Below are positions 4,113 to 23,019 of a DNA stretch of 64,000 bases, piece after piece (position 1 is the stretch's first letter; every line of letters begins with the position of its first letter). Position numbers and translations under genes: made by a program. The notes beneath the pieces are model-generated. The model was not told where the DNA came from. It worked only from the letters and a program-made list of their open reading frames with translations, and searched no databases. Source of the stretch: a virus; IMG/VR virus record IMGVR_UViG_3300021256_000005, one strand, 5' to 3'.

Positions 4113-4135
4113 CCTATTTCTCCTTTTGACATATT

Positions 4136-4684
4136 AAAACAACTATTGAGTGATATTTCTATCTGCCAATATATATCTTCATACATATTCAGACACGTAG
4201 CATATAACAGCCGAGCAGTCGGGAGCGACCCAACTGCTTTGTTATACCTATAAAACTACGGATAGACTGCTTACTATCACCTTTTACACACCTTTCGGCA
4301 CAAATATCGTTTTGTTTTAGAATGTACTTGTATAAAAAGCCTTGTGCTACTCAGACCAAACTCCAACGTTATACACGCATTTCTGCGCTTCACGGCTCTA
4401 CAGATTATTGATATTCCGCAGGTTTGATACAGTCATCGGCTAAACCCTAACTACGGTTATTGTACACAGTACCGTCTATTGCTCTGTCCGTCTCGTTTGT
4501 TCCTTTGTATGCGACACATATTGACACATATTCTTGATGTTGAGATTCTGTCTCTCCTTGCACAATATCACTATTATGCAACAGCAATAAACACAAGGTA
4601 TACCTCATGCGCTTACTGATCTTCCGAACATTCTCAGCACCGTTGGTTTCACGGCTCTGCACTGAGTTACTCAATAGCTGTTTT
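4136..4684 (-). ncRNA. candidate large structured RNA (alternatively a cos/pac region)
   Basis: 549-nt non-coding stretch whose ends form a 16-bp helix (4136-4151 with 4669-4684). Its single non-Watson-Crick position is G-U only in minus sense. Internal GAAA-tetraloop hairpin at 4375-4388 and an 11-nt repeat ttcacggctct at 4389 and 4648. Confidence 0.35.
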
Positions 4685-4691
4685 AATGTTT

Positions 4692-8235: not shown

Positions 8236-9045
8236 TCAGCTCTCAGAGGAACTTAAAAGAACTTTTTTACACGTTTGCGAACAAAATTGTTTGTTTTTGT
8301 ATGCTTCAAATAAGTGATGGCACACAGGACACTCTTTCAAATTCTTCACTAGTTTATAATGCGCATAATATTGTTTTCCCAAGTTATTAAAGTTCTCAAC
8401 CCAAAATGCAACTGGTTTAGTTGTGTCAAGGTTCAAAATATTTACTTTGAACATATCAAGTTTGTCCACATGCAAGGTTTGTTTCGTCCCACGGTCAACA
8501 GTGCGAATATCATAATTTAACATTCCTTTACCAATCAAATCATTTAAACACTTGAAATACTTGTCAGTGTTAAAGTTGGTTACATCCGCCAACTGTTTCA
8601 GATCAACCGCTAAAATATGAAACCAATACCAATATTTCTCACTGGACAAATAATCGTCCACATGATACTTTTCCATGTGGCAGGTATCAATCCACTTTTT
8701 ATGTACCAATAAAGCGAACAAGACTTTTTCATACTCCCAATTTTTCACTGACCGTATATTTTCCAGTTCGCATTCATAAACAGGCACTTTCACGTTATAG
8801 TCTTTAATGCGAGTAGCAGAAGCAATGAAGCGGTTATAAATCTCAGTTTTATCCTTTACGTCTAAATAACATAATACACCATCACTTAATTCATCAAATT
8901 TATATCTGATTTCTCCCTTCGTGTAATTATTGTTCAACATATAAACAGCAACAGCGGTTAACTCTTGTCTGCTAAACTGTTTTGTTTTTAATTTACCAAT
9001 CTTAAAAATATATTCGCCGTATGTATAATAATTATGAATAATCAA
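8236..9045 (-). CDS. hypothetical protein with C-terminal zinc ribbon
   Basis: 269 aa. C-terminus CPVCHH...CSQTCKK. Overlaps the RNAP gene stop by 4 nt. Confidence 0.6.
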   Translation of the reverse strand: MIIHNYYTYGEYIFKIGKLKTKQFSRQELTAVAVYMLNNNYTKGEIRYKFDELSDGVLCYLDVKDKTEIYNRFIASATRIKDYNVKVPVYECELENIRSVKNWEYEKVLFALLVHKKWIDTCHMEKYHVDDYLSSEKYWYWFHILAVDLKQLADVTNFNTDKYFKCLNDLIGKGMLNYDIRTVDRGTKQTLHVDKLDMFKVNILNLDTTKPVAFWVENFNNLGKQYYAHYKLVKNLKECPVCHHLFEAYKNKQFCSQTCKKVLLSSSES

Positions 9046-11822
9046 ATTTGCACCTCTGTATATTTCTTCCCTAAATACTCTGCACCGCTTTTATCTTCAA
9101 TTACCGCAATATGCCTACCTTCCGGTAGTATGCTCAAAATATCTTCGCCCAACATATCCCAGATGAACGCTTCATCAAAACCGGATGTTTTATTGCCAAA
9201 ATCAATCAGCACGTTAAATAAGTCGTATGTATTAGTTACAAGTTCGTCCAATTTGCCACGATATTCTAAATCGAACATACGTTTGGCATTACTGATAATA
9301 CGGTGAAAATCGTCGTCATTGATATTGTCAAGCAAGTGTCTCACTAATGAGAGATATTTATTATTACAATAGTCACGGTAAATCTCGTAAACAGTGTCGT
9401 AATTATATCTCACTGGTGGCATCCCGTATGACATCAAAACATTTTCTCCCTTGATTTTACGGAACGAAATATTATCCTCAACCCGCTCAAATTTGTGGCA
9501 AAGCTTATTCATAATGCATGGCGAATCCAGAACAGGAGAGAAGTATTCAACACGATTCACGAATTTACGTTCTTCTTTTGTTTTGTTCGGCTTATATTTC
9601 AAGTCGTTGTATTTGATTTGAAATTTTGCCTTACAGATTTTCTGAAAACTTTTCATATGATTTGTATACGATTTATGCAAATTATCATACAGATAAATCA
9701 TAAAGTACGGCTTCTTTGTAATCACCAACGAATTACGTTTGTATTTTGCGTCTATCACCTCTGGACTATCATTTTCTAAATCAATTTTTACACGCTTAAT
9801 CCATTCTTCTGGAAATTCAGGAGATACACCAAGTTTAATTTTATCAATCTCTGCACCAATGATCTCACGCAGTAATTTCAGACGTGTTAAAATGATTCTA
9901 TGTTCTTCTGGTTTGGTATCAGCAGGAAACAAAGGCAACATAGCATTGAGAGATGTGCTATTGTTCGTGATTTGACCTACTAAAGTGTCGAATCCGTCCA
10001 TATCGCAAGCAATCATGTTAGCGTATGTCGGCTTTCGTTTCGGTGCTTTGTCTTTGTCATATGTGATTACATTGTTTTTATAATACGCCCCCTCAATTAG
10101 TTGCTGATTATCAGTTGTAAACGCAATATCACCGTCGAAATCCGAGTCACTATGGCGTATTGTGCTAGTATCATAAATACTATACACGATTCCAGAATAC
10201 AAATACTGAAACCATTGTTCGCATTCATCGTCATCGTACACAGATAAGATATTATGTTCATGCCGATCCACCATAGGACTTCGCATCGCATCTATAGTAT
10301 TTACACCACGGTTCAGCCAAAACTGTGTATATACACAATTAGCAGGAATAAACCCCTGTATTGGCATATTAGAAGCTTGTTGCAGTAGCGGAATAGGATC
10401 AGCCAACTGGAACTGATAATTTCCCTTCGCCCAAACACGACCAAGTTTTGCTTGCTTGAATGATTCCTTAATACTGTGATAAATCTTACGCTGTATGTAT
10501 TCGTCTTTAAGCAAGTCTTGATTTTTCACAATTGCCTTTGTAAATAAACTACCGCAACTATTCATCATATCCTGCCAAGTTTCATCGGCGTGTTTACACC
10601 CAATAGCATACAGATTAGCGTATAACGATTCACCGCTACAGATTTTTTGAAACCATTCAATTGTCGGCTGTATCAACTCGTCTATCGCTTTATCGGACAA
10701 TCCGCAATTCTGAATGTACTGGTAATTCAGTTGAGAATATTCTGCGTCATATTTTTTGTTGTATCTAGCAACACCCCAGTACAGTCCGTATTTGTCATGA
10801 TAGTCAACATACTCACGCACCGATGAATAGTAATCATGCATCTTAAACTGCGACTCTGTGAGTAAAACGTCTATTTCGTCCACATTAAACAATTCGCCGT
10901 AAATACTGCGGATTTCAGTTACCCCACACCGTTCCTTTAAGTATTTACGGAAATCAAACGTCAGCAGATTGCCCTTTACGAATGCCGTCCTAATTACGAA
11001 CTGGCAAGCAGTATATCCAATCCCCATATCCTCAGACCAAAGTTCAGCCATTTCTGGCGTGATTAAACCTTCGCCATCACAGCTGTTCAAAACAACGTCC
11101 ATAGTAGTAGGTTCGACTGTCTTTGTTCCATCCTCATGCTTCACGATATAGTCTATCTTCTGCTGTGGAATAGTAGTTTCAACGTCAGCAATTACGCAAA
11201 TTCGAGGTTTTCTCACCCACAGAACGGAAGAAAACGACAGGGCAAAATACGCTGATAGTTTCGACAGTACAATTTCATCAATCGTACCGTAGAGTCCGCA
11301 GTACAAATGTTCATTGAGTATATCGTAATATTCATCGTTGATAAACGTCACGGTATTACGTCTCATTTGTCCTGCACCACAACAGAACCGAACGTAATGT
11401 TTACCATTGCAGTAGAAGCCGTGTTCCGCTATATGCTTATAGTGTGCCTTATTTACAACTTTGACATTGATAAAATCCGTCAGGTAAGTCATATCGAGTA
11501 GTTTGTCCTTCAACTGTTTAATAGACTTTTTGGTACGCTGATTTGTGTGCTTTGTACGTACTTTATCAATTTGTACCCGCACTTCTTGAATGTCGTTGTA
11601 TAATTCAAGCGGTGTGCGTTTCTCCCCCTGTAAGTCTCTCAGCTTGCGTAATACTAAATTGTCACCAATGGAAACAATTTCTTTATTTTTAACCGCCTTC
11701 TGATAACTGTACTGTCCCAGATCGAATCGTGGCTCAGTTGGTAGTTTCCCACCAACTAAACCTGTCCGATAAATCTTCGTTGTTTTAATTTTTAGTATGT
11801 CGTATAAAATTTGTTTTGGCAT
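9042..11822 (-). CDS. single-subunit two-barrel RNA polymerase, YonO / cellular RdRP-like
   Basis: 926 aa. DFDGD (residues 561-565, nt 10128-10142) matches the Mg-binding loop of multisubunit RNAP beta-prime (NADFDGD) and the DxDGD of YonO/QDE-1. It is preceded by AMRSPMVDRHEH, which resembles the RxP strand of the same barrel. Confidence 0.6.
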   Translation of the reverse strand: MPKQILYDILKIKTTKIYRTGLVGGKLPTEPRFDLGQYSYQKAVKNKEIVSIGDNLVLRKLRDLQGEKRTPLELYNDIQEVRVQIDKVRTKHTNQRTKKSIKQLKDKLLDMTYLTDFINVKVVNKAHYKHIAEHGFYCNGKHYVRFCCGAGQMRRNTVTFINDEYYDILNEHLYCGLYGTIDEIVLSKLSAYFALSFSSVLWVRKPRICVIADVETTIPQQKIDYIVKHEDGTKTVEPTTMDVVLNSCDGEGLITPEMAELWSEDMGIGYTACQFVIRTAFVKGNLLTFDFRKYLKERCGVTEIRSIYGELFNVDEIDVLLTESQFKMHDYYSSVREYVDYHDKYGLYWGVARYNKKYDAEYSQLNYQYIQNCGLSDKAIDELIQPTIEWFQKICSGESLYANLYAIGCKHADETWQDMMNSCGSLFTKAIVKNQDLLKDEYIQRKIYHSIKESFKQAKLGRVWAKGNYQFQLADPIPLLQQASNMPIQGFIPANCVYTQFWLNRGVNTIDAMRSPMVDRHEHNILSVYDDDECEQWFQYLYSGIVYSIYDTSTIRHSDSDFDGDIAFTTDNQQLIEGAYYKNNVITYDKDKAPKRKPTYANMIACDMDGFDTLVGQITNNSTSLNAMLPLFPADTKPEEHRIILTRLKLLREIIGAEIDKIKLGVSPEFPEEWIKRVKIDLENDSPEVIDAKYKRNSLVITKKPYFMIYLYDNLHKSYTNHMKSFQKICKAKFQIKYNDLKYKPNKTKEERKFVNRVEYFSPVLDSPCIMNKLCHKFERVEDNISFRKIKGENVLMSYGMPPVRYNYDTVYEIYRDYCNNKYLSLVRHLLDNINDDDFHRIISNAKRMFDLEYRGKLDELVTNTYDLFNVLIDFGNKTSGFDEAFIWDMLGEDILSILPEGRHIAVIEDKSGAEYLGKKYTEVQI

Positions 11823-11831
11823 ATATTCCTC

Positions 11832-13571
11832 TTAAATAATCCACGCTTCACATTGAATATTGCTAATATTTAATTCGTGTTTAGCACGTGTCATTGCTAC
11901 ATACATAAGTCGTGCTTCGTTTTCTGGTGCGTCACGCCAACTTGGAAACCTATCTGGCTCGCAACCAATAATATACACACGGTCAAATTCCAATCCTTTA
12001 CTGCCATGAATCGTCATAAGAGAAACACCGCTATGATCGGATTTCTTTTTCTTATGATTCATCGTGCTAAATACAATAAAGTTATCAATCGAACTAAACC
12101 GCCACGCCATAGAAGTAAGGTTGAAAATTGAATCTCGTTTATCTTCGACTGATACTGAATCATATCGTTCATCAAGCCACTGATTCACCCTGCACAGTGC
12201 AACAATACTATCAATGATTTTTCCAACCTGCACGTTCCGTTCTTCTTTGGTCTTTAACCGAGAAATTATATTATTGAGTTTCTCTACGTTATCTCTTTCA
12301 AATGCCTTGTCAAACTTGTGGTCAAGTAATGCTTCATACATAGAATAGTTTCGCATGGTGGCTTCTGCCCGCAGATCATCTACCAAACTTGACTTAAAGT
12401 AAGTAGCAGGGTATAAGCGTGATTCTAACAGTTGTTCCAATGCTTCATCATCACTTGTGCGATTAACTAATCTTAATACCGCCATAATACCTTTAATCGG
12501 CTGACGCTCAAAAAACGAATCACTACTATATAGCGTGTAAGGAATGTTCTTATCTTTTAGCAAGGCTTCAAGCGAGTCTACCATTGCGTTGTTACGGTAC
12601 AGAACAGCCGTGTTGTTCAATTCTGCTTCTGACAGCTTCGACAAACGTTCACAAATACTCTCTGCTTCATCCAATGGAGTATCATAAGTGCTTATATTTA
12701 TTTTAGTTTTAGAGCAGTCATTAGCTTTGGCGTAATATTTTACCTTGTCACCCACAAAAGGTTTAATAAAATCATTAGACGCCGTTACTATTGTATCGTT
12801 GGAGCGATAGTTCGTATTCATGTAGATTACGTGATCCGCTTTATTACTGAACTGATAAAACAGCTCAGAATTAGCACCCCGAAACGAATAAATAGATTGT
12901 AAATAATCGCCTACAATGAAGATGTTGTTATCAGGACACATCAATTCCATTAACTTGTACTGAACTACGTTGTTATCCTGCGCTTCATCGTTCAATAAGT
13001 ATTTCCAAGTACGTCCAATATTGTCCGCCTGATATTCCTTTAAGGTAAGCAGTAACCATTCGTCAAAGTCGTACAGATGATGTTTATGACAGTAGTCCTG
13101 ATAATCGCTGTAGTAGTAGCGCATCTGCTTCTCAGAGTATTCGCAATCCTTCTCCTTAAATTCATCGGTTGGATAAATACCCCAGTTTTTCTGATAAGAA
13201 ATCCAAGCACGAATATCTTTGATGTTAATTTTTGGATTGTCTTTCGACCATCTGCGTTTCAGCTGATAATCTTTTGGCATATTGAGAAGATCCTCGTAAC
13301 CGATTTCTTCCAATAAACGCTTGCAGATTGAGTGCATTGTGCCAGTGGTGACGCCGGTAATATTTTTGTCTGCCAGTTTCTTCTTTAGATCATTAGAAGA
13401 AGCAAGAGTGAAAGACAGAGCAACAATGTCATTTGGATTGATGCCTTGTTCAATCATATAGTTAATCCGTTCTACTAATACAGTAGATTTTCCGGAACCC
13501 GCTGAAGCAACCACTTGAACAGAACCGTCAATTGTGTGAATTGCTTCAAGTTGCTGTTTGTTATATTCCAT
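11832..13571 (-). CDS. UvrD/PcrA/Rep-family SF1 DNA helicase
   Basis: Walker A ASAGSGKST, DEAQD, TIHGSKGLEFD, YVAMTRAK. Confidence 0.85.
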   Translation of the reverse strand: MEYNKQQLEAIHTIDGSVQVVASAGSGKSTVLVERINYMIEQGINPNDIVALSFTLASSNDLKKKLADKNITGVTTGTMHSICKRLLEEIGYEDLLNMPKDYQLKRRWSKDNPKINIKDIRAWISYQKNWGIYPTDEFKEKDCEYSEKQMRYYYSDYQDYCHKHHLYDFDEWLLLTLKEYQADNIGRTWKYLLNDEAQDNNVVQYKLMELMCPDNNIFIVGDYLQSIYSFRGANSELFYQFSNKADHVIYMNTNYRSNDTIVTASNDFIKPFVGDKVKYYAKANDCSKTKINISTYDTPLDEAESICERLSKLSEAELNNTAVLYRNNAMVDSLEALLKDKNIPYTLYSSDSFFERQPIKGIMAVLRLVNRTSDDEALEQLLESRLYPATYFKSSLVDDLRAEATMRNYSMYEALLDHKFDKAFERDNVEKLNNIISRLKTKEERNVQVGKIIDSIVALCRVNQWLDERYDSVSVEDKRDSIFNLTSMAWRFSSIDNFIVFSTMNHKKKKSDHSGVSLMTIHGSKGLEFDRVYIIGCEPDRFPSWRDAPENEARLMYVAMTRAKHELNISNIQCEAWII

Positions 13572-13609
13572 ACAGTCTCCTTTTATAAATTTATGTTTGG
13601 TTTAAGAAC

Positions 13610-13638
13610 AGTATAATCCGGAATGGGGTTAAAGTCAA
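13610..13638 (-). promoter_or_regulatory. sigma70-type promoter for the helicase/RNAP operon
   Basis: Minus sense TTGACT (13638-13633), 17-nt spacer, TATACT (13615-10), about 40 nt upstream of the helicase ATG. Confidence 0.6.
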
Positions 13639-13662
13639 GAGAAAATAAAAATAAATTAAGTA

Positions 13663-13691
13663 TTGACAAAATTAAAAAGTTGTGTTATTTT
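13663..13691 (+). promoter_or_regulatory. weak candidate rightward promoter into the hub
   Basis: TTGACA (13663-68), 17-nt spacer ending TGT, then TATTTT. The extended -10 TG is present but the -10 hexamer is poor. Confidence 0.25.
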
Positions 13692-13787
13692 ATTATAATA
13701 TATATATATTAATTATATATTATATATATTTATATATTAATTATATATAAATTATATATTATTAATATAATATTATTACGTTTTATT

Positions 13788-13877
13788 CGGCAGTCGTGTC
13801 AACGACTGACGATAGCGTGACGTTGCATCGCAACGGAACGCGCCCCGCCGACAGGCGGCGTTGCCGACAGGCAACTG
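13788..13877. repeat. GC-rich palindrome island 1 (four adjacent hairpins)
   Basis: Hairpins at 13791-13808, 13815-13841, 13845-13858 and 13861-13874. The last two share a GACA loop. Confidence 0.85.
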
Positions 13878-13962
13878 TATAATAGTATTATATATATTTA
13901 TATTATATATAATATATATTATATTTATATATATATATATATTATATATTTATATTACATAC

Positions 13963-14038
13963 ACTTAGACAGCTACGCCAGTAGCTGGCTAACGGTGCTG
14001 GTATTGCGTAGCAATGCCTGCGCCGAAGCGTCGCAGAC
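13963..14038. repeat. GC-rich palindrome island 2 (three hairpins)
   Basis: cagctac-gcca-gtagctg 13970-13987; attgc-gta-gcaat 14003-14015; ctgcg...cgcag 14018-14036. Confidence 0.8.
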
Positions 14039-14055
14039 ATATATATTATATATAT

Positions 14056-14099
<44 letters not shown>

Positions 14100-14389
14100 T
14101 ATACAATAAGATAATATATTTGTCAAGTATAAAATTATAATTATTTTAATAATATATTTAATTAAATATATTTAAGTATTATATTATATACTATATATTT
14201 AGTTAAATATATTTAAGTATTATTATAATATATAATTATTTATATATTATTATATATCACTGTATATTATTATATAATAATTAAGCACCATAGTTATTAT
14301 ATATTATATATTACTAATTACATACATCATCAATTACATACATTACTAATTACCAGAGTTATTATTTTATTATTGTTTATTGTTTATAT

Positions 14390-14462
14390 ACTTTTGGCTC
14401 CTTTTGCTAACGCAAAAGATCACCAAAAGTTCGTATTCCTTCGCAAGCGAAGAAATACGAGT
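14390..14462. repeat. GC-rich palindrome island 3 (nested hairpin plus 30-nt palindrome)
   Basis: acttttgg/ccaaaagt encloses ttttgc-taac-gcaaaa (14390-14430). A near-perfect palindrome spans 14431-14460. Confidence 0.8.
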
Positions 14463-15950
14463 GTAATATATATAAATAAATATATTATTATATTTATATT
14501 ATTATATATTTATTATATATTATTATATTATATATTTATTATTATTTATATTATTATATATCTATTATTCTGCTGAGTTATATTATATTAAACAGTGTGG
14601 TTGCTATATATTATTATTTATTAAATATTTTATCTATTACTTTATCTATCGTTTGTATTATTCATTCACACTATTGAATTGTTATTATATACCCATACAA
14701 CAACACACAGTCATTTTGTGCGCTGTTTTATATATGCAGTTTAATAAGTTTACCCTAAATTATTAAAACGTCTGTATAAGCCTAATAGATATGTTATTTG
14801 AGGTGTGCCTTTTTTGGCGGGTTCTATTTTGTTGCGTGCTAGTTCCTGAGCTGTTTAGTTTATTATTTAATCGCTGTTATTTGCGCCGCCAAATTATATA
14901 TACCAAACGTCCTGTATTTTTAGCGTGTTTGTATTTGTTTGGTTGCCTATTTAGTTTAGTGTTCTGTAAGATGAGACAGTAAACTATTTGGATGTTATAT
15001 TTAGTTATATATTATATTATATATTTATATATTATTGACTGTCCAATTATTTTTCTGCGCCTTGTATCTTTGTCGGCTTTGTTTTATATTATTACTACAG
15101 TATTTTATAGAACCGCTTGTCTGAAACATGCCTATATCTACACCTATTGATTGTACGCATGTTTTTATGACACCACCCTATAACTTTTACGTCTGAGAAT
15201 AAAAACGTCTATATGAGCGTTTTAGAGCATTGTATAATACATTGATGATTGTCTATGTGTTTTGTTTAGTTAAATAAATTTAATTAAATTTCTTTAAGTA
15301 TTTATTGGTGCGCCACTAGAAATATAGGCAGTATTTGACTGCTTTGTTTTGCGATGGTAAACTGTATTAAATAATTATTTGCGTGTTTTATTACCGCCTG
15401 CGAAATAGAATAATGTATATTTATTCATTGTTTATACATTTTGACTTGTTTGGTTGTTAATTTTTGCGGCTGTAATTTTTGGTTGTAGCCGTTAATGTTT
15501 GCGATGGTCTGTTTAATGTGTAAATATACCCCGCCTGTTTATTAAGTATGAGATCGCTGTTGGAGTACTTTTTTAATGTGTTTTGTATGTTATTTAGCTG
15601 AAAGATAGTTAAGCCATTAAGCAGTCAATTAGTTTAGATGATTGTTTTATGTTTGATTGAACAGAGCAATAGTGGTTGTTTCGTATTATTATATAGCACT
15701 TAAATGATTGCTATTGTTTTGCTGATGGTTTATTCTGCGTTATTAGACAGCTAATTAGTTGAGCAGATATATGCTAATTTGTCCGCGCTGTAATTAGTTT
15801 ATTTATTGGAGCAGTAAGTGATTTGCTAGTTCTATATTGCAGTTGTTTAGTCAGTGATGTTTGATGTTAAATTAGTTAGGTTCCTAACTAACTAGGTGCT
15901 AAGCCATTTTTGTGGCGACTGAGGGTGTTATTTTATATTAATTATATATA

Positions 15951-16235
15951 GTTACTAATTAGTTACTAGTATTTAGCGGTTGATAATATAGTGCAGGACA
16001 ATTGCCTAATTTATATGGTTACTTATTGGTTACTAATTATGTTGTTGTTTTATGCAGTGAGTGGATTCTATTAGGCGATTGAGAAGTTGATTCTGGCAGT
16101 TAATTATTATTGAATTAAGCCGCTGAATTACTTTATTTGATTGTTGTTTTGGAAGGTGTTATTTTGTGTTGATTCGAAATTATTAGGACGTGATGTAACT
16201 AATTGTAGTTACTAATTGGTTATTAGTTACTTATT
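15951..16235 (+). repeat. iteron-like direct repeats GTTACTAATT / GTTACTTATT
   Basis: GTTACTAATT at 15951, 16029 and 16208. GTTACTTATT at 16018 and 16226. Further variants (gttactag 15962, gtaactaatt 16195). All on the same strand. Confidence 0.7.
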
Positions 16236-17217
16236 AGGTATTAAGTATGTTGTTAGTTATTTATTAGTTACGTTGCGATTTATTTAGTTGCTTCTTAATT
16301 TATTTATGTTTTGTAATATTACTTATTCTGCGACTGATTAAGTATTGGGAAATTCATTAATCTACTGATTTTGTTATGGTTTCTAAGATATCTTCTGACG
16401 TAAAATTGGTTTTGATTAATAGTTAAATATATTTAATTATTTAGTTGAGTAGTTTTACGATTGCTGTATTGATCTGATTGTAGTTGGTAAGAAGTAATAT
16501 TATTGGCTGTTAGAACTATATGGTATTAGCAGAGTATATGATTGTTGTAGTTTAGTGGTTAATTTGTTGTGTTGTTTAATTATTAAACAGTGATTTATTT
16601 AGTAGCGAGCAACAATAAGTAATAAGTTTTTAGTTAGAGTGTTAATTAGTTGTAGTGCTGATTGAACACTGATGGTTTAGTAGTGATTTATTAGAGTGAT
16701 GATTGATTTATTTATGTTTTGGTAAATTTATTTGGTTTTTGTAAATAATTTTAGGTAGATATATTTAATTATTATTTATAATGACTGAGTTGGCAAGTTA
16801 TGAATGTTACTTGAAGTATTCAATTCATTTTAATAAGCCTGAGATTTTCTTGTGTCGATTTAACTTATTGAGAGTAGTTTTATAGGACGCAATTCTGATG
16901 GAACAGTTTAACAATAAGGCTACTTGATCGTTTAATTAATTAGTTAGTTATTAGGTTTTTAGTTTTTTAGAGATTGATTTAGTGGATAGTTATTTATTAA
17001 TGCGGGATTTGGTGAGTAGAACTTTTATTTAGTGAATGTGGCAGTTTGATAAGTAGGTGATGGTATAGGTTGTTAGTTAGTAATGTTGATTGGTGGTAGT
17101 GTTTATAGATTAGTGGTTATTTAGTGAATTAGTTAGTGATTGTTGCTGATGTTGATTGGTTGATAGTGTATTAGTTATGATGTTTGTTTGATTGATAGGT
17201 GTGATGGCTGTTTGTGG

Positions 17218-17384
17218 GTGAGTGAGTTATTTGGTAATTTTATTTGATTTTTTTGTAATTAGTTTTTGTTAGTTTCTTTAATAGTGAGTTATTTATTTGG
17301 TGAGTTTGTTGGATTTTTGGAATGTTAGTGAGTTTTTAGTGAGTTGGGAAGTGAGAAGGGTGAGATTTTGACGGGGTGTGTGAG
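17218..17384 (+). repeat. GTGAG direct-repeat array
   Basis: GTGAG at 17218, 17222, 17284, 17300, 17328, 17339, 17351, 17360 and 17380. The 17328-17360 group is spaced 9-12 nt apart. Confidence 0.75.
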
Positions 17385-17416
17385 TTTACCTCCATATAGC
17401 TATTTTAGCTTTACAC

Positions 17417-17503
17417 TTTTGTCAAAATGTATAAATAACCCCCTTTTGACGTCGGATAATAAAAATTACCCGACATGGCACTTTTTTGACATTTATGTCA
17501 AAA
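17417..17503. promoter_or_regulatory. operator-like TTTTGAC half-sites and palindrome
   Basis: ttttgtcaaaa 17417-27, ttttgac 17444-50, and the 20-nt palindrome ttttgacatttatgtcaaaa at 17484-17503. Confidence 0.5.
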
Positions 17504-17624
17504 ACTTAATAGTTAAATTTTTTTAACTAATTTTTTAATTATATATTATATATTATGCATAATATATTATATATCATATATTATATAAAATTATATTTGA
17601 CACAATATAAATTTCCAGAGCAAC

Positions 17625-17724
17625 AAAATACTTAAAAATCTTTAACCATTCCCATCCCATCAAAAATACTTAAAATAATTTAACTATTATTTTTGCTCTA
17701 AAAATACTTAAAAATTTTTAACTA
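17625..17724 (+). repeat. three 24-nt direct repeats at exact 38-bp phasing
   Basis: aaaatacttaaaa(t/a)-n-tttaac(c/t)a starts at 17625, 17663 and 17701, 100-200 bp upstream of the consensus promoter. Confidence 0.8.
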
Positions 17725-17821
17725 TCTCACCAGAACAAAAAATATATTTCATCAAATATAATTTGATACAACGTTATGCTGCACGTCACCAAACAAAAAA
17801 TAAATTTTTTCCAAAAACCTA

Positions 17822-17850
17822 TTGACACAACGCGATACTAGTGCTATACT
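17822..17850 (+). promoter_or_regulatory. near-consensus sigma70-type promoter
   Basis: TTGACA (17822-27), 17-nt spacer, TATACT (17845-50). First strong rightward promoter before the plus-strand arm. Confidence 0.75.
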
Positions 17851-17856
17851 ATAGTC

Positions 17857-18440
17857 AAGATAAAGATATAACTTATTTATCTTATCGTTCGGGCACTCTG
17901 CCCGCCCACCGCTATCACAGCGGGCGTACCTTGACAAGTTACCTGTTGGTAACTCATAAGATAGGAGAACACCGTGACGGGTGAACTCTGCCTATCGTTA
18001 GTTTGATAATTCTAACGCCTAAAAATTATCAGCCTATCTATAGGCGTAGTTTGCATACCCATGATAGGTTTACTATGAAATCGGCAACTGAAACCGTAGT
18101 TATGATAGAGTCGTTTAGACTCAAGTAGTCGGGTACAAGCCGAGTAGTAAATTGGGATTCATGGCAGACAAACTACAGCTATAGACAGGTGACTTACCCT
18201 TTGTATATGTGAGGGTGTCGGGCTTTTCGGGTGTCCCATCAATACATCCAGGACGAAAATCATATACCGAACAAAATTGTCAACCGACGTGCCAGGGGTT
18301 GAATGTTTGCGGACTCAGTGCGCTTAAATAGCAGATAAATTTACACCGCAACATTGGCCGCCTGGTATGTCGTTACCTTGTAAGTTGCTTTAATTGCATG
18401 AGTTTATCGTGCAATTAACGCAACTTATAAAGCGCAATAA
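17857..18440 (+). ncRNA. candidate ~590-nt structured leader or large ncRNA
   Basis: No ORF. GC content is higher than the surroundings. Many local helices: 17891-17903, 17909-17923, 17937-17954, 17960-17996, 18108-18122. An H-type pseudoknot arrangement lies at 18005-18046. A 17-bp terminal hairpin lies at 18381-18427. Confidence 0.4.
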
Positions 18441-18454
18441 AAAAGGAGAAAACT

Positions 18455-19030
18455 ATGTTAAAATTTAATCAGATTTCAAACGGCTTTATTGACAAGACAG
18501 CAAAGGAAAACAAGGCGGGCATTACCCGCATAATTAACTACGGCGTATCCCTCGTTGATCACGCCGAGAAACTTCTGTCTTTGCAGGAAGAAAAGAAGGA
18601 AGCAGAAAACAATCTGAATTCTGCTTCTGAAAAGTTAGACGGCACAATCTCCATTGACGAACGTGCCGCAACTCTGTTATCGTATCGGCTGAAAGTTAAC
18701 GCAGTCAGTGAGAAGATTAAAGCAGAAAACAAAAGTTTTCGCTCGAAATCAAAGGTATTCACCGATGCCTTCAAGACGTCTGAATTATATCAGGCGTACA
18801 AAGAGTTTGACGGAACTGGAAACAGTTACCTTGATGCCATGTCAACGTTTCTTGATTTAGTCGGTATTGTACCGACTAAAAAAACTGTCAAAAAACTTTG
18901 CCGTCTTGCTGGTGGCTCAGTAACTACTGGCAATAAAGAAATAATAAATTGCCAATTCACAAAACGCCTGTCTAAAAAGGCGTTTGAAACTTTAATCATT
19001 AGATTGCTGTGTGAAGAGTTCGCACAATAA
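18455..19030 (+). CDS. hypothetical protein (coiled-coil-like)
   Basis: 191 aa, strong RBS aaaaaggagaaaactATG, first gene of the plus arm. Confidence 0.7.
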   Translation: MLKFNQISNGFIDKTAKENKAGITRIINYGVSLVDHAEKLLSLQEEKKEAENNLNSASEKLDGTISIDERAATLLSYRLKVNAVSEKIKAENKSFRSKSKVFTDAFKTSELYQAYKEFDGTGNSYLDAMSTFLDLVGIVPTKKTVKKLCRLAGGSVTTGNKEIINCQFTKRLSKKAFETLIIRLLCEEFAQ

Positions 19031-19046
19031 TTAGAAGGAGGAAATT

Positions 19047-19232
19047 ATGAGTTGGTTTGATGCAACAAAAAATTATCACGGGTATACAAAAGAAGAGTTC
19101 TATTCGGTATTCACCGATGAAGAACTCAATAGGAAATATGCCGAACTGGTTGAACATTATGATTCAATCAGGCAGGCTGACGCAGGGATACTATATGATA
19201 TTCTCTGTGAACTATCAATAAAAATAAAATAG
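19047..19232 (+). CDS. hypothetical protein
   Basis: 61 aa, RBS gaaggagg, followed by a terminator. Confidence 0.6.
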   Translation: MSWFDATKNYHGYTKEEFYSVFTDEELNRKYAELVEHYDSIRQADAGILYDILCELSIKIK

Positions 19233-19256
19233 GGCGCAAGCCCTATTTCTTTTTTA
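19230..19256 (+). terminator. rho-independent terminator
   Basis: tagggc-gcaa-gcccta (GNRA loop) followed by tttctttttt. Confidence 0.7.
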
Positions 19257-19324
19257 TTATTATATATACATGTGTCACGTTTAATGGGTTCCCATAAAAA
19301 CGTGGCAGAACAGAAAGGGACACG

Positions 19325-21303: not shown

Positions 21304-23019
21304 ATGAGCTTAAAAAATGACGTAATCGAAGTATTAGATAATGAGAAATATATCTATTACAATGATGCAGTGTCAAGAATTATTAACGCTTATGAACCAA
21401 ATAAACATGAGGTAGTTGACATTTTACGCCGTCATCCTGACTGGAACGAGGATAATATGTCAATCTGTATCCCCGCAACATCGTATACACGAAAGTTCAA
21501 TAGTAATGCAATTTCCACGTTTGTAGATTACCTGATAGGCAGTATTTATTTCTCTGAGGAATTTCAGAATAATCTGGTAACATACTGTGCCGTGATGAAT
21601 TATCAGTTACTCTCCAAATCTTTAGGAATAATATATTGTAGTGAAGTCATGCGTAAATGGTGGTTTGAAGAAAATGAACCATTGGTTAATGAGGATGGTG
21701 CCCTTCTATACACACGGAATAAAGTTAGTACAGGAAAATATAATACTATTTTTCATGTATGCCCGAAAATAACGAAGGTGTTATCTTTCATTAGTTCGCT
21801 TAATACAGTTTTTTTCAATGCTGATATGGACGACGAATTAAATGAACTTAACGCCGATTTCCCGGCGTTCCATCTGCGAAACAACATGAAAACGTCAAAG
21901 GCAATCGGCAAAATTTGTAGAGAAATGGGTTGGGATAAATTTCCCAAATATAATGAAAAGTATGCGGCACTGTGTGACGAGATTAACCCATTAACAGTGC
22001 ATACGCCTACATATATCAGTGTTCACCCTTGTGATTATTTATATATGTCAGATGGACATTCATGGACTAGCTGTCATGATATTCGAAACGCTGATGATCC
22101 GGGATGCTACAGTTCTGGCACTATCAGTTATATGTTAGATCATTATAGTTTCATCGTATACACACTGCCAGAAGTAGTAACCGAAAAACCGTGGAATCAG
22201 CCGAAACTGCAAAGGGAAGTGTTTGCTCTGAAAGACGGTGTTATATTACAGAGCAGATTATATCCGCAGAGCTGTGATAACGGTTCAGGGGATGCTTATA
22301 GGGAAATCCGCAACGTTGTACAGAAGGTAATTGCGGATTGTCTTGGGCAGCCTAATCTGTGGCAGACAAAACATTACCCGAATGTAGAACAGTACATCGT
22401 CCATGGTGACGGTGCTACCTGCTATCCAGATTGGAAAGACGGAAATCCTGGATCTACATATTGTTCCCTGACGTTCTTAAAGGGAATTGATCTCACCCAT
22501 TTCTCAATGGAAATCGGTGCAACACCTGTATGTCCAAACTGCGGAATGGAACATTGTCGTGAAGACAGTATTATCTGCGAAGATTGTGGAAACATTATCA
22601 CCTGTGCAGATTGTGGCTGTGAGATGGACAGAGACTGCGCTTACATGATTGATGATGAATATTATTGTGAAGGTTGTGTCTTTTGGTGTGAATACCACGA
22701 GGATTACGAACTAATTTCTAATGGTGTAACAGAAGTTGACGGATACGGTCAGGTTTGTGATCGAGCGTTAGAATATGGAGATTTTTACCAATGTGAATAT
22801 TGCGGGGAATGGAAGTACGTAGAGGATATAATCCGCACAGAAGATGGTTGTTATTACTGTTGTGAAGAATGTGCAATTAGAGATGGTTATAGGGAAACCA
22901 CCGATGGATGGTATCTTGAACGTAAAACAGTAAAATGTCCACATTGCGGACGTTACAATTTAGAAGAAGACGATCAGTGCTATTGGTGCGGTAAATTTGT
23001 TGCGGGGGTGGCATCATGA
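21304..23019 (+). CDS. hypothetical protein with a C-terminal multi-CxxC (zinc-ribbon-rich) region
   Basis: 571 aa with many CxxC pairs in the last ~170 aa. Confidence 0.7.
   Translation: MSLKNDVIEVLDNEKYIYYNDAVSRIINAYEPNKHEVVDILRRHPDWNEDNMSICIPATSYTRKFNSNAISTFVDYLIGSIYFSEEFQNNLVTYCAVMNYQLLSKSLGIIYCSEVMRKWWFEENEPLVNEDGALLYTRNKVSTGKYNTIFHVCPKITKVLSFISSLNTVFFNADMDDELNELNADFPAFHLRNNMKTSKAIGKICREMGWDKFPKYNEKYAALCDEINPLTVHTPTYISVHPCDYLYMSDGHSWTSCHDIRNADDPGCYSSGTISYMLDHYSFIVYTLPEVVTEKPWNQPKLQREVFALKDGVILQSRLYPQSCDNGSGDAYREIRNVVQKVIADCLGQPNLWQTKHYPNVEQYIVHGDGATCYPDWKDGNPGSTYCSLTFLKGIDLTHFSMEIGATPVCPNCGMEHCREDSIICEDCGNIITCADCGCEMDRDCAYMIDDEYYCEGCVFWCEYHEDYELISNGVTEVDGYGQVCDRALEYGDFYQCEYCGEWKYVEDIIRTEDGCYYCCEECAIRDGYRETTDGWYLERKTVKCPHCGRYNLEEDDQCYWCGKFVAGVAS

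Follow-up and report, generated by a model that had tools for sequence, protein, structure and literature searches.

Large conserved structured RNAs other than those of the ribosome are rare, and most of those described (ROOL, GOLLD, OLE and raiA) are without a known function. OLE RNA, about 600 nt in length, is co-transcribed within an operon in extremophilic Firmicutes. Structured RNA is also found at the head of early phage transcripts: the R0.3 site of T7 precedes gene 0.3, and a hairpin in the N leader of lambda precedes the ribosome-binding site of N, both leaders being processed by RNase III. Firmicutes phages and prophages are also the place where the large, ornate RNAs ROOL and GOLLD occur (Weinberg et al., 2017; PMC5737381), and cryo-EM has shown that they form nanocages (PMC12286853).

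The locus considered here belongs to an uncultured human-gut phage. The window, by which we mean the whole stretch of 64,000 nt that was analysed, is part of a 77-kb contig (ENA ERZ12302812; also Logan SRR873596). Immediately in front of a rightward operon it carries what we regard, with good though not complete confidence, as a previously undescribed, lineage-restricted structured RNA of about 575 nt that functions on the plus strand. The RNA family is new, although RNAs of its kind, be they large structured phage RNAs or structured early leaders, are known already. The features of the window that bear on this reading are the following.

4133-4690, minus strand: ROOL RNA (RF03087), a full-length model match of 300.3 bits
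9042-11822, minus strand: YonO-type two-barrel, single-chain RNA polymerase (Pfam RdRP, 9.5e-13)
17625-17725, plus strand: direct repeat of 25 nt in three copies (AAAATACTTAAAAAT.TTTAAC.AT), period 38 nt, family D10
17822-17850, plus strand: promoter of the sigma-70/sigma-A type, TTGACA-17-TATACT with a TG extended -10, matching 11 of 12 consensus positions
17857-18430, plus strand: conserved structured non-coding RNA element of about 575 nt, from folding, conservation and compensatory pairs
18455-19030, plus strand: first operon gene, 191 aa
19047-19232, plus strand: second operon gene, 61 aa
19227-19248, plus strand: first intrinsic terminator on this strand
21304-23019, plus strand: 571-aa protein without a Pfam domain, rich in invariant Cys pairs

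Leftward genes (ending at 13571) and rightward genes (starting at 18455) are separated by a divergent control region of 4.9 kb (13571-18455) without any ORF of at least 100 aa, and the structured RNA forms its right-hand end. The YonO-type polymerase is 25-31% identical to the proteins of SPbeta, c-st and an Enterocloster phage, and if SPbeta is a guide, it is probably this phage-encoded enzyme that transcribes the leftward operon. The phage also encodes a UvrD helicase, a large DNA polymerase, a ribonucleotide reductase and one tRNA; SPbeta-like YonJ, YonG and YonD proteins were seen in the contig of a relative (L092). The ROOL gene sits in the leftward operon between a YonJ-like and a YonG-like gene, 13 kb from the structured RNA, and the phage thus has a known large ornate RNA besides the element at 17857-18430. 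The 571-aa protein marks a large and mostly uncultured phage group, for its 297 relatives (30-50% identity) come from phage contigs 90-220 kb long.

A consensus promoter at 17822-17850 had been proposed in the preliminary description of the locus, and this reading was borne out: it is the top-scoring site within 17300-19300, it is among the four exact TTGACA-N16-18-TATAMT sites found in the 64 kb, against 0.27 expected, and both of its hexamers are kept in the diverged relative described below. From its position we infer a transcription start near 17857. The three direct repeats, which are also kept in that relative, lie some 100 nt upstream of it. A motif, AAATACTTAAAAWNWTTTAAC, is present in 10 copies (0.33 expected), all of them in the non-coding interval 14161-17727, where the left copies are on the minus strand and the right copies, including three at 17625-17725, on the plus strand. 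The motif has the look of iterons or operators for a DNA-binding protein, and the repeats at 17625-17725 are probably protein-binding sites of the operator or iteron type.

Other parts of the control region have features of their own. The 2.1 kb at 15300-17400 are ORF-free and nearly devoid of C on the plus strand (A 543, C 150, G 468, T 940), with a GC skew of up to +0.89, and are partly kept in the diverged relative (many indels; 82% identity at aligned sites). On the minus strand, another promoter with a perfect consensus, TTGACA-17-TATAAT at 14126>14098, is directed at the UvrD/YonO operon. It is followed by a leader of about 520 nt (14126-13572, minus strand) with GC-rich hairpin islands at 13780-13880 and 13960-14040 separated by (TA)n runs; this leader folds with z = -6.2, and the relatives found do not cover it. 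An origin marked by DnaA boxes was considered for the window and rejected, the count in 13571-18455 being zero.

The stretch that follows the promoter had been described as free of ORFs, which holds for about 575 nt: only ORFs of 40-47 aa with GTG or TTG starts occur, and these are truncated or shifted in the diverged relative. Recoding of a stop codon was considered as well and rejected; TAA, TAG and TGA are all present in each of the six frames, and the indels that separate the two sequences (5, 14, 1, 1, 1, 1 and 5 nt) include no multiple of three. The element had also been called noticeably richer in G+C than its surroundings; with a G+C of 0.429 this clearly holds relative to the sequence just upstream (0.216), whereas the excess is slight over the adjacent gene (0.398). 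The window as a whole has 0.349 and the operon 0.367. On the plus strand the whole element has a minimum free energy (MFE) of -206.7 kcal/mol, with z = -7.84 relative to shuffled sequence; the scores of 16 coding tiles of the same size range from +1.6 to -2.9, that of the relative's own copy is -5.2, and the true ROOL RNA scores -6.3.

The question of whether this folding is maintained by selection could be addressed with the sole diverged full-length relative found, a 2.9-kb Logan contig (L003), whose 191-aa protein is 84% identical. Over 17857-18440 the two sequences are 87.7% identical at aligned sites; in the adjacent gene, identity is 87-89% at codon positions 1 and 2 and 57% at position 3. 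The element is thus as conserved as the first two codon positions and far more so than the third, and is therefore under purifying selection. For the pairs themselves, circularity was avoided by folding the window sequence alone and then scoring the 69 substitutions of L003 on the pairs of that fold. Seven pairs are compensatory where 1.35 +/- 1.13 were expected, and 13 are broken where 25.6 were expected (P about 0.0005 for each, two-sequence permutation test), figures that come from a set in which some compensatory calls depend on the alignment and the power to detect covariation is low, because it holds two full-length sequences of about 88% identity. The compensatory pairs are distributed over five separate helices. 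On this comparison the element is conserved and base-paired, with helices kept through compensatory change; together with the folding statistics and the purifying selection, this supports the core of the preliminary description, in which the promoter leads into a long RNA that is structured and not translated.

The hairpins named in that description are all present where it had placed them and recur in the MFE fold, which from 5' to 3' has the following parts.

17890-17954, plus strand: variable 5' region with hairpins 17890-17904, 17909-17923 and 17937-17954 of the MFE fold
17960-17996, plus strand: hairpin with an internal loop and two compensatory pairs
18005-18030, plus strand: 8-bp hairpin UGAUAAUU/AAUUAUCA, stem 1 of a proposed pseudoknot, with two wobble changes
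18032-18190, plus strand: central domain, a single irregular hairpin of about 49 predicted pairs in 159 nt (model R1)
18194-18218, plus strand: short hairpin with an ACCC/GGGU core, in both sequences with the register shifted
18285-18372, plus strand: long hairpin of about 29 predicted pairs (model R2)
18378-18430, plus strand: 3' terminal hairpin of about 22 predicted pairs with a small internal loop and one compensatory pair, 18397:18411 (CG to UA)
18431-18454, plus strand: variable spacer with the Shine-Dalgarno sequence GGAG (18445-18448), outside the conserved fold

Conservation is lowest at the 5' end, where 17857-18000 is 73.6% identical counting gaps; the hairpin 17937-17954 is cleanly deleted in L003, and is therefore dispensable. 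In the hairpin 17960-17996 the changes are GC to AU at 17965:17991, GC to CG at 17967:17988 and AU to GU at 17961:17995. Both changes in the hairpin 18005-18030 (alignment columns 169:194 and 173:190) give G-U on the plus strand and A-C on the minus strand. An H-type pseudoknot had been proposed at this place, and its words are indeed present, but stem 2 (CGCCUA at 18016-18021 with UAGGCG at 18041-18046) loses three of its six pairs in L003 without compensation, and the pseudoknot is not conserved. C18033:G18189 instead becomes U:A, which supports the long-range helix that closes the central domain. The other compensatory pair of the central domain is 18074:18146 (UA to CG), and the most conserved block of the RNA, 18079-18138 with 98% identity, lies inside this domain. 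All changes in the long hairpin 18285-18372 are compatible with wobble pairing, and at its apex lies an invariant block of 41 nt (18315-18355), most of it unpaired; 18112-18150 is another such block, these blocks being 39-41 nt long. Invariant unpaired stretches of this length point to sequence-specific contacts, beyond what stability alone would call for. As modelled, the overall fold is a row of long irregular hairpins, with no ornate multi-junction core.

The 3' boundary can be placed with the help of a third lineage (L004), which keeps only the last 48 nt and in which 20 of the 21 positions of the 3' arm of the terminal hairpin are identical. The hairpin ends 14 nt before GGAG, and the intervening spacer is unpaired in the MFE fold and differs in length and sequence in all three lineages; since the arm is kept in L004 while the spacer differs, the conserved element stops near 18430 and leaves the Shine-Dalgarno sequence outside. 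The terminal hairpin is not followed by a T-run and is thus not a terminator, and no plus-strand terminator was found between 17857 and 18455, nor any helix that would sequester the Shine-Dalgarno sequence. With no terminator, and with a Shine-Dalgarno sequence lying unpaired in a variable spacer, this is not a leader of the riboswitch or attenuator type. An ordinary long 5' UTR or riboregulator had been offered as a fallback reading; it agrees with the lack of a terminator before the first gene, but a riboswitch-type expression platform is missing.

Either strand of such an element could in principle give rise to the folded molecule, and a transcript from the minus strand has in its favour that this strand folds nearly as well (z = -7.75) and that compensatory counts are equal on both. 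We nevertheless consider a functional antisense RNA very improbable: the strongest promoter able to drive it (18479>18452) matches 9 of 12 positions, the energies of the minus strand are higher in both sequences (consensus energy from alifold -139.4, against -153.5 for the plus strand), and in the best domain, 18283-18372, the plus strand has -37.6 with a structure conservation index (SCI) of 1.02 and the minus strand -28.7 with 0.86. The asymmetry between G-U and A-C, at 5 to 3, does not separate the strands. Besides the energies, the plus strand is favoured by the wobble changes in 18005-18030, by the promoter and by the direction in which the operon runs.

The size of the RNA and its phage context had suggested a likeness to ROOL and GOLLD, and this was examined with the covariance models of Rfam 15 (4227 families), at gathering score and then with permissive filters at E <= 10. 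No family reaches its gathering score over the element, and ROOL has no match within 17500-18700 even at E <= 10; the matches that appear at this permissive level score 12-20 bits and are chance matches, mostly between the 3' hairpin and models for eukaryotic miRNAs or snoRNAs. The ROOL model (gathering score 99.1 bits) works in this window, as its match at 4133-4690 attests. With chance matches only over the element, ROOL, GOLLD, raiA, OLE and HEARO are excluded in the sense of membership in their profiles, and the suggested likeness did not find support. That the element could instead be a strongly diverged member of one of these catalogued families is hardly credible: its length (about 575 nt), its occurrence in a phage and the presence of a ROOL gene 13 kb away would fit, but no match appears even at E <= 10 in a genome where the ROOL model scores 300 bits elsewhere, and the predicted architecture is rod-like. 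The element does share with ROOL and GOLLD its size class, its location in a phage and a strong excess of folding. It differs in standing at the 5' end of an mRNA where those RNAs are free-standing near tRNAs, in being predicted as a row of hairpins where they have a multi-junction, pseudoknotted core, and in having been found in one narrow lineage only. The resemblance to OLE is one of setting, both being large structured RNAs with long conserved unpaired stretches inside a protein-coding transcription unit; the element, however, gives no model match, is encoded by a phage rather than a bacterial chromosome, and has no genes for partners of the OapA/OapB type that we could see.

A pre-primer for replication similar to ColE1 RNA II had been named as a further possibility, and a long structured transcript beside a putative origin-like region is what such a reading would lead one to expect. 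Transcription, however, leaves the AT-rich, iteron-bearing region and directly enters a translated gene with a strong ribosome-binding site, not an origin, and there is no convincing antisense promoter for a partner resembling RNA I (the best has 9 of 12 positions); we regard this explanation as extremely improbable.

Searches for further members of the family returned little. Beyond L003, blastn (word size 11) found nothing in 50,697 phage genomes and 72,556 plasmids; exact-pattern scans of IMG/VR revealed no further homolog, and neither did nhmmer across the 69 IMG/VR loci of the 571-aa protein family. Six exact-pattern matches in GTDB, all in GC-rich bacteria (L005-L010), and two in JGI metagenomes were rejected as chance. 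The covariance models R1 and R2, built from the element, were run over 1.45 Mb of related loci, and their sole additional match (L021:1770-1881) was rejected as it lies inside a coding region. The neighbouring 191-aa protein falls into only three clusters among 5.8 billion proteins, and its AlphaFold model (pLDDT 68) is too weak to serve as a query for structure searches. Neither the 191-aa protein nor the UvrD or 571-aa protein has a close relative in IMG/VR, and the trail of a YonO variant (P0125) ended in the L003 lineage again, on a contig that is broken within the AT repeats. As far as these sequence collections reach, the RNA family is confined to one rare phage lineage, with two full sequences.

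More distant relatives, recognised by a 571-aa protein of 45% identity, are the uncultured phages L017, L018 and L019, and they have a leader of their own at the same position; that of L018 is identical to that of L017.

L017:550-1140 and L019:3463-3916, sense strand: early-operon leaders in relatives, candidate structured RNAs

As in the window, AT-rich direct repeats follow a G/T-rich stretch, and after them come a promoter-like site and an ORF-free leader of about 400-600 nt; the first gene is not homologous. Between these leaders and the window RNA no similarity was detected in sequence or by covariance model. Homology of the L017 leader was rejected, the MAFFT alignment being forced and the words GTCAAGA, TTTTCGGGTG, GAAACCGT and GTTTGATA occurring in another order. 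When the L017 and L019 leaders are compared with each other, 10 pairs are compensatory where 2.3 were expected. Broken pairs are fewer than expected in the sense orientation alone, with 12 where 26 were expected; in antisense there are 22, the expectation being 25.6. The minimum free energy of the L017-type leader is -117 in sense and -96 in antisense, with no match in Rfam; overall, the L017 leader folds no better than shuffled sequence (z = -1.17). Other ORF-free regions served as controls for the pair test and gave mixed results, and the test is thus not trivially positive.

Further observations were made in these and related phages. A G/T-rich stretch like that at 15300-17400 of the window also lies 5' of the L017 leader (L017:120-350), and words similar to DnaA boxes occur at L017:40-110. 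A twister-P5 ribozyme (L019:4718-4789, 40.6 bits) and a HEARO RNA (L033:20265-20485, 126 bits) were found. In phages of about 160 kb there is an ORF-free region of 1.5 kb with a GC of 0.45 (L045:4151-5665 and L064:340-1853), with a minimum free energy of -496 on the plus strand and -432 on the minus strand; all six of the one-sided differences between the two copies keep the plus-strand pairs, there is no match in Rfam, and the region may, to judge from these comparisons, be another large RNA.

Given the position of the element at the border of the control region, its hairpins might serve as DNA, in an origin, a packaging site or a single-strand initiation signal, folding in single-stranded DNA. 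The neighbouring 3.7 kb look non-transcribed and have iteron-like repeats and a strong strand skew, and the pair statistics of the minus strand are nearly as good as those of the plus strand, all of which would fit such a function. We judge it improbable all the same: the element lies inside a transcription unit, 3' of a consensus promoter, G-U pairs favour the plus strand energetically, pair conservation is specific to the sense strand in the analogous L017 and L019 leaders, and there is no cluster of DnaA boxes. A true DNA palindrome also looks very different. The cultured Enterocloster phage PMBT24 (L093) has, at 8798-9520, an AT-rich and near-perfect inverted repeat of several hundred bases (z = -17), located in the divergent gap adjoining YonO with consensus promoters immediately beside the flanking genes; PMBT24, the nearest cultured YonO phage checked, was rejected as an analog.

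For the plus-strand RNA, the order of events we envisage begins with host RNA polymerase, which would start at the promoter 17822-17850 and make this RNA the first product after infection. At the head of the first rightward transcript, of the immediate-early kind, the RNA would form its 5' domain. The transcript would reach at least the terminator at 19227-19248, taking in the 191-aa gene and running on into an operon with many anti-restriction or "polyvalent protein" domains; domains encoded in the operon are ArdcN (ArdC-N), MPTase-PolyVal, GmrSD_N, LPD24 and DUF5688, and HTH proteins are encoded as well. It would fold into a chain of hairpins, chiefly 17960-17996, 18005-18030, 18032-18190, 18285-18372 and 18378-18430, and an enzyme of the RNase III type would then cut the terminal hairpin, releasing a stable leader RNA of about 0.57 kb and a trimmed mRNA. 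The leaders of T7 and lambda are the model for this last step: like them, the locus combines an early promoter for the host polymerase and a long untranslated leader with a hairpin of at least about 20 bp close upstream of the first ribosome-binding site, here 18378-18430, which by this analogy is a candidate RNase III-type processing site. The leader is longer than theirs (575 nt against about 220-400 nt), and we know of no conservation over the whole length with compensatory changes in the T7 and lambda leaders such as is seen in 17857-18430. As no terminator follows the RNA, a discrete species would need processing, and we place the accumulation of such a species close to, though under, an even chance.

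The hairpins may instead act purely in cis, in a long 5' UTR that stabilises, times or processes the early mRNA, for example by shielding its 5' end against RNase J or RNase Y or by offering entry sites to RNase III, with no discrete RNA and no function in trans. We take this main rival to be a serious possibility, if short of a probable one. The start site and the ATG are not separated by a terminator, a predicted series of rods suits a simple stabilising or processing leader, and the leaders that related phages have at this position, unrelated in sequence, speak for a generic requirement and not for one particular fold. Invariant and mostly unpaired blocks of 39-41 nt, however, exceed what stabilising hairpins need; conservation equals that of codon positions 1 and 2; and there is no attenuator and no helix sequestering the Shine-Dalgarno sequence, whose spacer is the least conserved segment.

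A more far-reaching and rather unlikely reading is that the RNA represents a new class of large phage RNAs, cut from the immediate-early transcript and active in trans while the host is being taken over. It might then serve, for instance, as a scaffold or decoy directed at host defence, or assemble with itself as ROOL and GOLLD do, and the L017 and L019 leaders would be its functional counterparts. Such a class would amount to a general RNA-based function of early infection, with a turnover as fast as that of anti-defence genes.

The recurrence of unrelated structured leaders suggests that the position matters more than any single fold. The setting is an informative one, with a consensus promoter, the head of an anti-restriction operon, and a phage that has both a ROOL RNA and a YonO-type RNA polymerase. 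If the leader serves in processing or stability only, it would be a clear case of selection maintaining the structure of a leader over 575 nt; if the RNA acts during takeover, it would offer a testable entry into RNA-based conflict between phage and host.
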